NCBI RefSeq assembly: GCF_054482525.1
Contig: NZ_CM137006.1
DNA length: 64,000 nt
Reading direction: 5' to 3' (one strand)
Shown: piece by piece, positions 50,345 through 60,871 of the stretch
Layout: every line of letters starts with the position of its first letter
Numbering within the stretch: the first letter of the stretch is position 1
Translations under genes and position numbers: made by a program
Notes under the pieces: model-generated
Database searches by the model: none
The model's input: the letters and a program-made list of their open reading frames with translations, nothing else
Told to the model about the DNA's origin: nothing

Positions 50345-50929
50345 TTATTGTTTGCTTTTTTCGTTCTGGTTGATGACAAATTCAATGTAACTTTCGATCT
50401 TTGCTTTCTCGGTTTCGGGTAACAATGCGTAGCGCGAGCGGTCATAGTTGATAGTCGCAGGGTCGTGCGGGTGAATCAGTAATTCATAGCCGTGACGCCC
50501 GAATGCGGATGCAACATTCTCCAGGGTGGAAATGGAAACGCTGACCTCATTGTTTAACAGGCGGCTGATTGTCACCTGGGCGACGCCGGATGCGCGGTGA
50601 AGTTTTCCCTGTGTTGAAAGGTCGCGGCTTTCGCTCATCCAGCGTTCCAGGTTGTGAGCCGCCAGCTGACCAATGTCGCTTGGGCCGACAGGCTGAAAAC
50701 CTTCCTGAGAAAGCGAGCGATCGATATCAAGCCAGTTACGGGGTTTATTGGCGGCAGCTTCAATTTTTCGCGCAACCTGGTCGCCGATAACCTTCTTACC
50801 AAGAGCCCAGCGGTTTACCAGATTTGCCTGAGTTCCAAGTTTTTCTGCCATCCGCGTCTGAACACCATTGAATTCACGGTCGATCAAGTCGTTGAGATTT
50901 TGCCTGCGGACGTCCTGGATACTTTTCAT
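50345..50929 (-). CDS. CI-like prophage repressor with two HTH segments, no S24 peptidase domain
   Basis: 194 aa; HTH-like segments (TRMAEKLGTQANLVNRW and GVAQVTISRLLNNE); divergent from Cro-like gene; no Ala-Gly/Ser-Lys autocleavage motifs seen. Confidence 0.7.
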   Translation of the reverse strand: MKSIQDVRRQNLNDLIDREFNGVQTRMAEKLGTQANLVNRWALGKKVIGDQVARKIEAAANKPRNWLDIDRSLSQEGFQPVGPSDIGQLAAHNLERWMSESRDLSTQGKLHRASGVAQVTISRLLNNEVSVSISTLENVASAFGRHGYELLIHPHDPATINYDRSRYALLPETEKAKIESYIEFVINQNEKSKQ

Positions 50930-51083: not shown

Positions 51084-51314
51084 ATGAGCGATAACGGACA
51101 TTTCGATTTCAAAAAGCACTGGCTTGCACTTACTCCGGATGAGCGTGAAGCCTTCGCACAGGAAGCCGGAACGACGAGTCACTATATACAGACTCACTTA
51201 ACAGGTAAGCGCAAAATGCCAGGTAAGGTATTGATGAATGGGCTTTTTAAAGCCTGTAAAACAAGACAATGGCTGCGCTCAAAAGCAGAACTGGCATACT
51301 TCTTCTACTCATGA
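51084..51314 (+). CDS. Cro/CII-like HTH regulator
   Basis: 76-aa ORF divergent from repressor, followed by terminator. Confidence 0.55.
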   Translation: MSDNGHFDFKKHWLALTPDEREAFAQEAGTTSHYIQTHLTGKRKMPGKVLMNGLFKACKTRQWLRSKAELAYFFYS

Positions 51315-51336
51315 TATCCAGCCACAACCCTCTGTA

Positions 51337-51360
51337 GACCGCCACCCGGCGGTCTTTTCA
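51337..51360 (+). terminator. Rho-independent terminator (tR1-like) after cro-like gene
   Basis: gaccgccacccggcggtc hairpin followed by ttttca. Confidence 0.6.
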
Positions 51361-51462
51361 TATCTATTCGTACCTCAAAGGTAATAAAAAACCAAATCTG
51401 GTTGATCAAATTTTCCAATTGTGCAAAATAGCCAATATCAATAACAAAAAGGGGCGGAAAAA

Positions 51463-51675
51463 TTGAAGATAGTAACCAGAATGGAGGCCGCAAAAGCCGG
51501 GTTAAATCGCTATTTCACAGGAAAGCGGTGCCGTCACGGCCATCTCTCTGAAAGGTATGTTCTGAACGGAACATGTGTTGAATGTGCAATGAATAGCGCC
51601 AACCGCCATCGTAATGAATTTGCTTGTGCACTAAAGAGTGCAAGAGGGGAAACCTATGGCAAGCAGCTGGATTAA
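51463..51675 (+). CDS. Small Cys/His-rich (zinc-binding?) phage protein
   Basis: 70 aa; C-x-H-G-H…C-x2-C pattern; 3' end overlaps O-like gene. Confidence 0.45.
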   Translation: MKIVTRMEAAKAGLNRYFTGKRCRHGHLSERYVLNGTCVECAMNSANRHRNEFACALKSARGETYGKQLD

Positions 51676-52486
51676 GGTTGAAGTTATCACTCCTGATAAA
51701 CCTGAAATTTTTCAGATAGCAGAAATTCTGGGTATTGATCCAGATGCTGTTCTTGGAAAGCTGGTTCGTATATGGGCATGGGCTGACCAGCAAACAATAG
51801 ACGGTAACGCTGGCAGCGTTACAAAAGGAGTACTTGATAGACTCGCTTTTATTACAGGATTTGCTGACGCCCTCATTAGCGTCGGATGGCTTGCTTATCA
51901 TGACGGCAAACTAATTCTTCCAAACTTTGAGCGACACAATGGAGAATCATCGAAAAAACGTGCACTTACGAATAGAAGAGTGGCAGAGCATCGAAAACGA
52001 GTAACGCAAAAAGTAACGCCAACAGCGTTACAAAAGGAGTTACCAGAGGAAGAGGAAGAGGAAGATATATATAAAACCCCACACATAGCGCACGTGCGCG
52101 AGGGTGCTCCGACCAGTGAAGCGAACAGTACGCCGTTGCAGGTGGCAGAACCTGAATTTCTGGATGGCCTGAGTGAACCCATCGGGAAATTTCCGATGAC
52201 AGATGGCTGGCTACCGTCGCCAGATTTTCGGCGGCGTGCTGCGCTGTGGGGAACGGCCCTGCCGGAACCGGAATTTACACCTGCTGAACTTGCTGCATTC
52301 CGGGATTACTGGATGGCTGAGGGCAAAGTGTTCACGCAGGTTCAGTGGGAACAAAAATTCGCCAGGCACGTAAATCATATCAGGGGAAAATCAAAAAATG
52401 CCGGGAAAAGCGATGAGCTTGACTGGAATAACACTGACTGGATAGAAGGGGTGTGGGATGAAATCAACTCCAGAACTTCTCAATGA
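51656..52486 (+). CDS. Replication initiator (O-like) with DnaT-like C-terminal domain
   Basis: ORF 51638..52486 (start at MASSWIKVEV assumed); internal iterons; acidic EEEEEED linker; followed by P-like gene. Confidence 0.7.
   Translation: MASSWIKVEVITPDKPEIFQIAEILGIDPDAVLGKLVRIWAWADQQTIDGNAGSVTKGVLDRLAFITGFADALISVGWLAYHDGKLILPNFERHNGESSKKRALTNRRVAEHRKRVTQKVTPTALQKELPEEEEEEDIYKTPHIAHVREGAPTSEANSTPLQVAEPEFLDGLSEPIGKFPMTDGWLPSPDFRRRAALWGTALPEPEFTPAELAAFRDYWMAEGKVFTQVQWEQKFARHVNHIRGKSKNAGKSDELDWNNTDWIEGVWDEINSRTSQ
51800..52080. promoter_or_regulatory. Putative phage replication origin (iterons + AT-rich segment inside O-like gene)
   Basis: Repeated GTAACGC/GCGTTAC motifs; 17-bp exact repeat agcgttacaaaaggagt at ~51813 and ~52024; then gaagaggaagaggaagatatatataaaa. 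Confidence 0.55.
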
Positions 52487-53234
52487 GTACGATCGCTTAC
52501 GTGAGCATGGTGTTGCTGTGCATGAAGAGCGGCGTGACAGCAATGGCAAAAAGGAGCAGGTTGCTAGAATTTTCAATGAACTATTTGTCCAGTTACAGGC
52601 TGCATTTCCTGCAAGCGTTTCGACCATAAGGGAGCAGAACAAACTTAATGAATTCCGTAAGCAATGGATGCTTGCGTTTCTGGAGAATGGGATCACTACA
52701 ATGGAACAGGTTAACGCTGGTATGCGCCACGCCCGCGCCAGTGAATCTCCGTTCTGGCCGTCGCCAGGGCAATTCATCAAGTGGTGCAAAGACAGCAAGA
52801 TGGTTCTTGGCGTCACCATTGACGATGTGATGGCGGAGTTTCACCGGTACAGCAAGGAAAAAAGTTTATATCCTGGTGGTCCCGAAAGATTCCCGTGGCG
52901 ACATCCGGTTATGTACTGGGTCGTATGTGATACCCGCCGTGCAATGTATCAGCGCCAGCTTAGCGAGATTGAGGTTGAGAAACACGCGCGCAGGCTGCTC
53001 GATGATTGGGCGAAAAAGGTGGCTTCCGGACAGCAGATACCCGATCCGGTGATCAGCATACAGGCAAAGCCAGAACCCATGAGTACGCCTCCTGACACTG
53101 GGAGAGACGTTTACCATCCACCAGGGCGAAGTTTCGGGTGCATGCCTAACGCCGCCACCCTGGGGGGAATAACACCGGCGCAGTGGCTGATAGAGGAATA
53201 CAGGCGGGGAAAGGCGGCAGGATTTATCAAGTAA
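52458..53234 (+). CDS. Replication protein P-like helicase loader
   Basis: 258 aa; strong similarity to lambda P as I recall it (…FPASV…REQNKLNEFRKQWMLAFLENGITTMEQVNAGMR…). Confidence 0.85.
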   Translation: MKSTPELLNEYDRLREHGVAVHEERRDSNGKKEQVARIFNELFVQLQAAFPASVSTIREQNKLNEFRKQWMLAFLENGITTMEQVNAGMRHARASESPFWPSPGQFIKWCKDSKMVLGVTIDDVMAEFHRYSKEKSLYPGGPERFPWRHPVMYWVVCDTRRAMYQRQLSEIEVEKHARRLLDDWAKKVASGQQIPDPVISIQAKPEPMSTPPDTGRDVYHPPGRSFGCMPNAATLGGITPAQWLIEEYRRGKAAGFIK

Positions 53235-53351
53235 TACCAGCGCGATAGCGCATTTTTTTACGCCTACATGATTACCTGTTGGGTAATAAAATGTTCTAAT
53301 CTCTATTGATTTCATGTCTTATGTGGTTTTTAATTACCTAAGGGGTAAATC

Positions 53352-53696
53352 ATGAGAAAACAGATACAGGCTCTTGGTCGACTCAAAACAGGCCAAATGA
53401 ACAAAACAGAATCTGCGTATTGCCAGCACCTTGAGCTGCGTAAACGTGCAGGAGAAATCGTCTGGTATCGATTTGAGGGTATCAAGCTGCGGTTAGCTGA
53501 CAACACGTTCTATACGCCCGATTTTGCTGTGATGCTCGCCACCGGCGAGATGGAACTGCACGAAGTGAAAGGTTTCTGGACCGACGACGCCAGGGTGAAA
53601 ACCAAAGTCGCCGCAGATCAGTATCCGTTCCGAATCATCGGGGTAACGGTTAAACCAAAGAAAGCAGGTGGTGGCTGGAACATCGAAGAGTTCTGA
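53352..53696 (+). CDS. Small PD-(D/E)XK-motif protein (DUF1064-like)
   Basis: 114 aa; YTPDF … ELHEVKG resembles PD…(D/E)xK. Confidence 0.5.
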   Translation: MRKQIQALGRLKTGQMNKTESAYCQHLELRKRAGEIVWYRFEGIKLRLADNTFYTPDFAVMLATGEMELHEVKGFWTDDARVKTKVAADQYPFRIIGVTVKPKKAGGGWNIEEF

Positions 53697-60794: not shown

Positions 60795-60871
60795 TGGCGC
60801 GGCATGCAGGATTCGAACCTGCGACCAACCGCTTAGAAGGCGGTTGCTCTGTCCAACTGAGCTAATGCCAC
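60795..60871 (-). tRNA. tRNA-Arg (anticodon UCU), phage-encoded
   Basis: Hand-folded cloverleaf: acceptor GUGGCAU/AUGCCGC, D-arm GCUCAGUUGGACAGAGC, anticodon stem ACCGC/GCGGU with loop CUUCUAA, T-arm CGCAGGUUCGAAUCCUGC, 3' GCCA encoded. Confidence 0.85.

Follow-up and report, generated by a model that had tools for sequence, protein, structure and literature searches.

In bacteriophage lambda, the replication origin sits in the middle of the O initiator gene and is made up of iterons and an AT-rich tract; two iterons together with the tract suffice for unwinding, and the O protein binds single-stranded AT-rich DNA as well (PMC7466680). The C-terminal domain of the primosomal protein DnaT forms a helical filament on lagging-strand single-stranded DNA (ssDNA) and marks the helicase loading site, an arrangement that was likened to DnaA in that work (PMC13377028). 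The DopC/DopE system of Cellvibrionales and Oceanospirillales (Brezellec et al. 2017; PMC5509034) pairs a gene in which an O-like N-terminal domain is joined to a DnaT C-terminal domain with a lambda-P-like gene immediately downstream, and the Rac prophage of Escherichia coli K-12 has been reported to contain an active origin, oriJ (PMC3945230). Here we describe a repeat element inside the initiator gene (positions 51656 to 52486, plus strand, 276 amino acids) of a prophage located on a 64,000-nucleotide stretch of E. coli chromosome (NCBI RefSeq assembly GCF_054482525.1, contig NZ_CM137006.1), the whole of which is called the window below. We estimate a probability of roughly 0.8 that an integrated Uetakevirus (epsilon15/phiV10/TL-2011b type) has its replication module here, with the origin inside the initiator gene.

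The locus resembles lambda in the order of repressor, cro-like gene, terminator, initiator, and loader, with a loader that is a true member of the lambda P family, in the placement of the candidate origin within the initiator gene where the N-terminal domain meets a linker, and in having dyad-symmetric sites followed by an easily melted tract with a strong purine strand bias. It differs in that lambda has four tandem 19-bp iterons at a spacing of about 20 bp, whereas the sites here are 7-bp half-sites with a 12-bp period in clusters 209 bp apart; in that the AT-rich region is about 40 bp long in lambda and is replaced here by an 11-nucleotide (nt) A/T run and a preceding 21-nt polypurine tract; and in that the C-terminal domain is DnaT-like, while that of lambda O binds P. 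The lambda design of an origin within the initiator gene followed by a loader is here probably built from other parts. An earlier note on this DNA, made from the letters alone, had proposed an O-like initiator with a lambda-type origin layout. The dyad-symmetric repeats within the gene, which covary with the N-terminal domain, agree with that layout, but a tandem array of iterons of about 19 bp is missing; likewise, "O-like" fits the role and the gene order, but no lambda O family was detected in the protein, and its N-terminal domain belongs to no classified family.

Heptamer clusters and a predicted meltable element in the initiator gene

The initiator gene contains the heptamer GTAACGC at 51804, 52001, and 52013 and the inverted form GCGTTAC at 51816 and 52025, so that the repetition of these motifs described in the earlier note amounts to three plus two perfect copies in 228 bp, a segment holding 5 of the 21 heptamer occurrences in the whole window. 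The copies are arranged in two sites. Site A (51804 to 51831) reads GTAACGC-TGGCA-GCGTTAC followed by AAAAGGAGT and codes for a loop segment, residues 50 to 56, of the predicted protein model. Site B (52013 to 52043) reads GTAACGC-CAACA-GCGTTAC, then AAAAG, then the degenerate heptamer GAGTTAC (52037 to 52043), and an extra GTAACGC in direct orientation lies 12 bp upstream of it (52001 to 52007); with this extra copy and the degenerate one, site B comprises four heptamers with a 12-bp period. Both sites are instances of a 28-nt unit, GTAACGC-N5-GCGTTAC-AAAAGGAGT (51804 to 51831 and 52013 to 52040), that is 89% identical between the two copies. The 3' part of this unit is the exact repeat CAGCGTTACAAAAGGAGT at 51814 to 51831 and 52023 to 52040; a two-copy exact repeat had been noticed before and is present, with its length corrected from 17 bp to 18 nt and its spacing from about 210 bp to 209 bp. 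Only two palindromes of this kind with at most two mismatches occur in the window, both of them in the initiator gene, compared to 0.19 expected from shuffled sequences, and a chance origin of the repeats is excluded. A possible third degenerate site at 51594 to 51612, 210 bp upstream of site A, has six mismatches and was discarded as indistinguishable from chance.

Directly 3' of site B, we found a 21-nt polypurine tract, (GAGGAA)n, on the plus strand (52045 to 52065), which encodes the acidic linker residues EEEEEED and is the longest purine or pyrimidine run of the window. It is followed by the 11-nt A/T run TATATATAAAA (52066 to 52076), the presumed start of unwinding, around which the GC content is 0.375 over 40 bp. 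The 16-bp sequence GAAGATATATATAAAA (52061 to 52076), which spans the end of the tract and the A/T run, lies at the 99.99th percentile of nearest-neighbor duplex instability within the window. The AT-rich stretch noted earlier is borne out in part only: the segment is the most unstable of the window's 16-mers, but pure A/T sequence is limited to the 11-nt run next to the polypurine tract.

Relatives of the initiator gene were drawn from annotated phages, 80 viral contigs, and metagenome and genome contigs, and 26 representatives that are less than 93% identical to one another were used as a diverged set. All 64 distinct N-terminal gene regions have GTAACGC/GCGTTAC clusters, and the positions agree among them, with one cluster near +148 and the other near +335 to +426. 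The number of copies ranges from 2 to 3 at site A and from 2 to 6 at site B and changes in steps of whole 12-bp units: 0 to 3 extra direct GTAACGC copies precede site B with the 12-bp period, and in Rac-like genes an insertion of 12 bp (four codons) enlarges site A by one additional heptamer and spacer. GTAACGC is kept in relatives whose proteins are 40 to 58% identical, including one from a Planctomycetes prophage. The earlier note had tied its proposal to conservation of the repeats in homologous initiator genes, and this conservation was clearly observed: both positions are invariant in the 64 distinct genes, synonymous positions included, and the heptamers persist in relatives with as little as 40% protein identity.

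When the 26 diverged relatives were aligned, the longest stretches without any variation proved to be the window's four heptamers, and the 5-nt spacers are variable. All 8 of the third codon positions within heptamers are invariant, compared to 8 of 121 elsewhere in the region coding for the N-terminal domain (Fisher P = 8e-9). Site A is translated as GNAGSVT and site B as VTPTALQ; since 209 is not a multiple of three, the two copies of the repeat are read in different frames. The frame of site B also differs by subgroup, with an offset of 357 in the subgroup of the window and of 367, 364, or 346 in Rac-like and other subgroups. These frame differences, together with the frozen synonymous positions, exclude a coding explanation, and the pattern indicates that selection acts on the DNA of the heptamers, not on the encoded protein.

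Five distant relatives of the N-terminal domain have altered heptamers, and in each gene the alteration is identical at both sites. L092 (165 to 812) has eight copies of GTTGCGC/GCGCAAC, with three GCGCAAC in a row at each site; L093 (257 to 967) has GTTGCGG/CCGCAAC, and L095 (1501 to 2154) has GTGACGC/GCGTCAC, at both sites. L094 (1501 to 2211) and L096 (1501 to 2169) have arms that are not complementary, GTGACGC/GCGTAAC in the former and GTAACGA or GTAACGG with GCGTTAC in the latter, again at both sites. Such concerted change of dispersed copies is as expected for sites that are read by one co-evolving protein, and the sole protein always linked to the heptamers is the product of the gene that holds them.

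The meltable element is also retained. In all relatives, the last heptamer is immediately followed by CCAGAG(G)AAGAG(G)AAGAG(G)AAGA, as either (GAGGAA)n or (GAGAA)n, which are translated as EEEEEE and EKRREE, respectively. The peptide thus varies while the tract stays polypurine, so that the tract is conserved as DNA. Short TATAAA-like runs come after the tract in relatives. In lambda, a palindrome lies to the right of the AT-rich run, and in the window a perfect 12-bp palindrome, GCGCACGTGCGC (52088 to 52099), is found to the right of the A/T run; its shuffle P value of about 0.06 is borderline, and its membership in the origin is doubtful. A palindrome at this place is absent in most of the enterobacterial relatives. 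It is strong in the (GAGAA)n subgroup only (L006 and L092 to L095), as a palindrome of unconserved sequence with 8- to 12-nt arms located 0 to 40 bp past the polypurine tract (shuffle P < 0.01 for each), and we dropped it as a feature of the family.

In five Rac-like relatives (L004:1458-1476, L005:1195-1213, L052, L063, and L075), a third GTAACGC-N5-GCGTTAC is found 20 to 30 bp upstream of the initiator ATG. This third palindrome is absent from the window, where the gene of a small zinc-ribbon-like protein fills that space.

The initiator protein and the distribution of the heptamers

The initiator, which matches phrog_2509, "replication initiation protein" (E = 9e-130), consists of an N-terminal domain, an acidic linker (PEEEEEEDIY), which the earlier note had pointed out, and a DnaT-like C-terminal domain, and its RefSeq name is "DnaT-like ssDNA-binding domain-containing protein." With the ATG at 51656, the start codon and the Shine-Dalgarno sequence coincide in the alignment with all homologs, so we rejected a GTG at 51638 as the start. 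When the protein was searched against Pfam-A with hmmscan at E ≤ 0.1, only DnaT (PF17948) and one chance match were obtained, and the N-terminal 165 residues matched nothing; neither half matched a lambda O family in Pfam-A, and NCBIfam gave a partial DnaT match only.

The N-terminal domain, which is presumed to bind the iterons, comprises approximately residues 1 to 125 (51656 to 52030, plus strand) and has no Pfam family. In a Foldseek search with its predicted model, the nearest folds outside its own family were replisome organizers (Phage_rep_org_N, e.g., SPP1 G38P), Lin1244_N, and DUF1376, with weak E values of 1e-4 to 0.3 and to predicted structures only; these families have no Pfam match to it at the sequence level. 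Judged by this model, the domain may be a winged helix similar to those of replisome organizers. It would share with these families the role of an origin-binding N-terminal domain of a phage initiator, as in G38P.

The C-terminal domain (residues 165 to 251; 52148 to 52408, plus strand) matches PF17948 over residues 179 to 249 with 66.6 bits, compared to a cutoff of 25 (E = 1.6e-18), and DnaT structures from E. coli and Klebsiella in the PDB (6aep, 4ou6, 9zbt, and 2ru8) at E = 1.5e-20 to 1e-17 and about 55% identity. The DnaT likeness ascribed to this half in the earlier note is well borne out, and residues 165 to 251 are a true DnaT C-terminal domain. The domain is about 55% identical to residues 76 to 157 of E. 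coli DnaT, and an acidic stretch lies upstream of it in both proteins. Among the DnaT residues proposed to bind ssDNA (PMC4129139), W140, K143, and R146 are kept in the initiator, while T and Q take the places of H136 and H137. The initiator differs from DnaT in that the N-terminal oligomerization domain of the latter is replaced by a putative origin-binding domain. Since its score with the DnaT equivalog model NF002770 (92.4 bits, profile positions 81 to 161 only) is below the cutoff of 201 and the DnaT N-terminal domain is missing, the initiator is not a DnaT ortholog. The acidic linker accompanies the N-terminal domain and iterons, as it is present with Rac-type C-terminal domains and absent in phiV10. 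We considered it as a mimic of the PriB-binding linker of DnaT and rejected this idea because it goes with the N-terminal module, not with the DnaT domain; we read the acidic stretch as a probable by-product of the polypurine tract.

Comparison with phages of the same genus separates the heptamers from most of their neighbors. The "primosomal protein" initiators of the phiV10 p43/epsilon15 type come from the same genus and share with the window their flanking genes, a DnaT-like C-terminal domain, a P-like loader, and repeats within the gene; specifically, phiV10 has the zinc-ribbon-like protein (62% identity), the cro-like gene, the DnaT-type C-terminal domain, the P-like loader, and the DUF1064 gene. 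However, the phiV10 initiator has an unrelated HTH_36 N-terminal domain (homology between the two N-terminal domains was rejected at an hhalign probability of 0.1%) and, instead of GTAACGC, six lambda-like CCCAAAAACGGG units at 18- to 24-bp spacing. We interpret the difference between the window and phiV10 as an exchange of the specificity module of the initiator on a common phage backbone. Within the phiV10 p43 gene (L001:3136-3325), three tandem copies of AACCAGTCATAT come after the six CCCAAAAACGGG-core repeats, and together they form a likely phiV10 origin.

Rac prophages give a similar picture. The Rac prophage of strain 442/2 and phages 666R9 and 673R7 share with the window the type of N-terminal domain (about 70% identity) as well as the GTAACGC clusters; they differ from the window in that the Rac-type C-terminal domain pairs with a DnaC-like loader. 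YdaU of the K-12 Rac prophage has a DUF1376 N-terminal domain, no GTAACGC, and GATGTTCAA-type repeats of its own; thus, the published work on oriJ does not cover the GTAACGC type of iteron. In ydaU (L007:3120-3977; NC_000913.3, 1421119 to 1421976), the GATGTTCAA/GATGTTGAA core occurs as one copy at about +141 and as a cluster at +352 to +430. These repeats are 211 bp apart, a split layout like that of the window with a different repeat sequence, and they may mark the position of oriJ.

Among all loci, the window-type N-terminal domain is always found with heptamers. It is combined in the majority of cases with a DnaT-type C-terminal domain and a P-like loader, and in others with a Rac-type C-terminal domain and a DnaC-like loader, with IstB/DnaC-like or DnaB-like neighbors, or with no loader nearby; heptamer-bearing loci occur with or without the zinc-ribbon-like protein. 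Throughout these combinations, the heptamers follow the N-terminal domain and no other element, and we consider them to be putative iterons matched to this domain of the initiator. Two loci, L037:1501-3762 and L054:1501-3663, encode a window-type N-terminal domain and a DnaT C-terminal domain with a RuvC-like or DUF1064 gene directly after the initiator, and we found no P-like or DnaC-like loader within 1.3 to 1.5 kb.

The element was found in 236 of 5426 complete E. coli genomes, and initiators with this N-terminal domain also occur in other Enterobacterales, in Pseudomonas and marine phages, and in Planctomycetes prophages. In a prophage-like region of Planctomycetes bacterium TBK1r (chromosome CP036432, 10.8-Mb genome; L088:3001-3708), the N-terminal domain is 58% identical to that of E. 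coli, the GTAACGC sites recur, and the tract takes the form (GAGAA)n; for a single initiator/iteron cassette, this phylogenetic spread is unusually wide.

Neighboring genes and the zinc-ribbon-like protein

The window is E. coli chromosome, as iscRS, ryfA, and sroE are all present, and a prophage of the epsilon15/phiV10 group (Uetakevirus) extends from about 45040 to the window end. Over positions 51300 to 53300, it is 99.9% identical to phage HEMP4, 99.0% to vB_EcoP_ZX5, and 97.8% to TL-2011b. The replication genes are preceded by a gene for a double-helix-turn-helix (HTH) repressor (50345 to 50929, minus strand) and a cro-like gene of 76 amino acids (51084 to 51314, plus strand). A strong terminator-like hairpin (51336 to 51355, plus strand) lies between the cro-like gene and the replication genes, and a terminator is annotated at the equivalent place in phiV10; with a hairpin at this position, the replication genes require antitermination or a promoter of their own. 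Within 51336 to 51460, the hairpin is succeeded by a 100-bp stretch of 27 to 37% GC content that extends ahead of the gene of the zinc-ribbon-like protein, and a simple promoter scan detected no promoter there. The loader gene (52458 to 53234, plus strand) overlaps the initiator stop codon, and its product covers the whole PF06992 profile with 187.7 bits, compared to a cutoff of 26 (E = 1.7e-55), and matches phrog_109, "P-like helicase loader" (E = 3e-88). A DUF1064 gene follows at 53352 to 53696, and the order of genes is the same as in the phiV10 annotation. An Rfam scan revealed no RNA family within the initiator region. A tRNA-Arg(TCT) gene (60795 to 60871, minus strand) lies inside the part of the window that aligns with Uetakevirus genomes.

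The zinc-ribbon-like protein, of 70 amino acids, is encoded directly upstream of the initiator (51463 to 51675, plus strand, TTG start) and matches phrog_1081, a family of unknown function (E = 2e-27). Its gene overlaps the initiator ATG by 20 nt, and in most relatives the stop codon of the one gene likewise overlaps the ATG of the other, which suggests translational coupling with the initiator. Database entries for the identical protein often begin at an internal ATG at 51481, giving 64 amino acids; the longer form is backed by a conserved MKI(I/V)TR N terminus in relatives that start with ATG or GTG. The gene is real and conserved, and its product has 260 homologs across Enterobacterales, all "hypothetical" and lacking a Pfam domain. 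The Cys/His pattern and the overlap with the initiator start reported in the earlier note are both present (C23-R-H-G-H27...C38-x2-C41), but the first His of C-x-H-G-H is H, R, or N in relatives. In 51 sequences, C23, H27, C38, and C41, in the order C-H-C-C, are invariant, as are G13, T19, G20, R31, and G36, so that the conserved ligands are C-x3-H...C-x2-C. In the AlphaFold2 (AF2) model of the protein (predicted local distance difference test score [pLDDT] of 89), a helix of 29 residues comes after a small beta knuckle. There was no Pfam or NCBIfam match, including to any Pfam zinc-finger model, and no fold match in the PDB with Foldseek, so we assign it to no named family. We rejected the protein as the heptamer binder, because it occurs with both types of initiator N-terminal domain and is missing from many heptamer loci; that phiV10, which lacks heptamers, has it, and that many heptamer loci lack it, argues that it does not read the iterons. 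Our guess, made with low confidence, is that it might be an accessory or regulatory nucleic-acid- or DNA-binding factor.

Initiation model, competing explanations, and implications

If the element is an origin, the N-terminal domain of the initiator, probably winged-helix-like, would bind as a dimer to the 7-bp half-sites GTAACGC, which form palindromes around a 5-bp spacer and recur as additional direct copies with a 12-bp period. Site A (51804) and site B (52001 to 52043), about 20 helical turns apart, would be brought together, and occupation of both clusters would give an O-some-like complex, possibly a looped one. Together with negative supercoiling, this complex would open the polypurine tract and the A/T run (52045 to 52076). 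In the manner of DnaT, the DnaT-like C-terminal domain would next cover the single strand thus exposed and designate it for the loading of DnaB, and the P-like protein from the next gene would deliver the host DnaB. The protein that binds the heptamers, the looping, the starting point of melting, the contacts of the DnaT-like domain, and the start of replication at this place are all parts of the model that we infer; coating by the DnaT-like domain and P-mediated delivery of DnaB are its least secure steps.

Several observations weigh against an origin of this kind. The layout is unlike that of lambda, with two separated clusters versus a tandem array and with pure A/T sequence of only about 11 nt. 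The acidic linker follows the N-terminal module and not the DnaT domain, whose role here we infer. Seven loci have a DnaT-type initiator with no loader gene nearby, so the proposed pairing of this C-terminal domain with P is not obligatory. In addition, the Rac variant that contains K-12 oriJ has another type of N-terminal domain, palindrome arms that change jointly would fit a hairpin too, and we found in the literature no experimental binding, unwinding, or initiation for the element or for any relative of it.

We asked whether the palindromes could instead be operators, bound by the initiator itself, the zinc-ribbon-like protein, or the repressor to control the replication genes, with replication starting elsewhere. 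Many plasmid initiators autoregulate through inverted half-iterons, and in the five Rac-like relatives the identical third palindrome occupies a typical autoregulatory position upstream of the ATG. However, the two sites common to the family lie deep in the coding region beside the conserved polypurine and A/T element, which are not operator positions, and the copy number of 2 to 6 at site B is typical for iteron arrays. The distribution of candidate regulators does not fit either, as many heptamer loci have no zinc-ribbon-like protein and phiV10 has this protein and the same repressor and cro-like genes but no heptamers. Autoregulation by the initiator could moreover accompany an origin function and hence does not count as a genuine alternative; the upstream palindrome suggests that the Rac-like loci have autoregulation in addition to an origin. 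We therefore regard control sites with an origin elsewhere as unlikely. Hairpins that act in mRNA stability, translational pausing, or coupling, or as cruciform or ssDNA structures, without being initiator binding sites, would be compatible with the 7-bp stem and 5-nt loop that each palindrome can form and with a terminator scan that detects both sites on the minus strand. In L092 and L095, both arms have changed with complementarity kept, which resembles stem covariation. On the other hand, the two sites of one gene always share their arm sequence, which independent hairpins need not do, and the direct-orientation copies, which cannot pair locally, are equally conserved and change in concert (L092). 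L094 and L096 retain identical noncomplementary arm pairs at both sites, and among the 26 diverged relatives the arms are invariant, with zero compensatory changes. Taken together, a hairpin function appears improbable, even more so than the operators.

The faintest prospect is that the repeat is a by-product of coding with no function of its own, either a peptide motif present in duplicate or the result of a recent duplication at this place. The peptide footprints GNA...SVT of the heptamers do recur in the protein, but the copies are read in different frames, the frame of site B varies among relatives, synonymous positions are frozen inside heptamers only, and the repeat is ancient, being common to relatives at 40% identity. 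The coding by-product reading is already refuted by the frame and synonymous-site analysis. Weighed against these explanations, an origin inside the initiator gene, read by the N-terminal domain of its product, is the one that we prefer.

The DnaT-like tail of such initiators has been annotated before, in phiV10, as "primosomal protein I," and in RefSeq, and we found no description of the N-terminal domain family, the GTAACGC half-sites, or the two-cluster layout in the literature that is searchable without a subscription. DopC differs from the initiator of the window in having an HTH_36 N-terminal domain and a chromosomal, nonphage context and in being reported as iteron free, whereas the gene pair in the window is prophage borne and has iterons; the phage loci analyzed here show that a fusion of an O-like N-terminal domain and a DnaT C-terminal domain is already present in phages with iterons. 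We offer a further idea as speculation, which we think is possible but rather doubtful. Joined in one protein, an origin-binding domain and a DnaT C-terminal domain might make a DnaA-like phage initiator, one part of which reads duplex iterons while the other polymerizes on the melted polypurine/A-T strand and marks this strand for DnaB loading, creating an origin-specific "preprimosome" that bypasses PriA and PriB. In the loader-less loci L037 and L054, such an initiator might rely on host DnaC via the DnaT-like domain, the fusion might be a direct phage ancestor of DopC/DopE, and the zinc-ribbon-like protein could be a further origin factor.

The analysis provides a sequence-defined candidate origin and a candidate specificity, the GTAACGC half-sites, for a widespread family that has so far been annotated by its DnaT-like tail only. 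It also shows that phage initiators are composed of three exchangeable parts, namely, a cassette of iterons and N-terminal domain, a C-terminal domain, and a loader, and it places the pairing of an HTH/DnaT-C protein with P, as in bacterial DopC/DopE, in true phages that retain iterons, which raises the question of what job a DnaT C-terminal domain has at an origin. The variants L092 to L096 would be natural specificity variants usable for swaps. The heptamer signature could be used to predict the origins and the incompatibility or exclusion groups of such prophages, and compatible replicons could be built from it.

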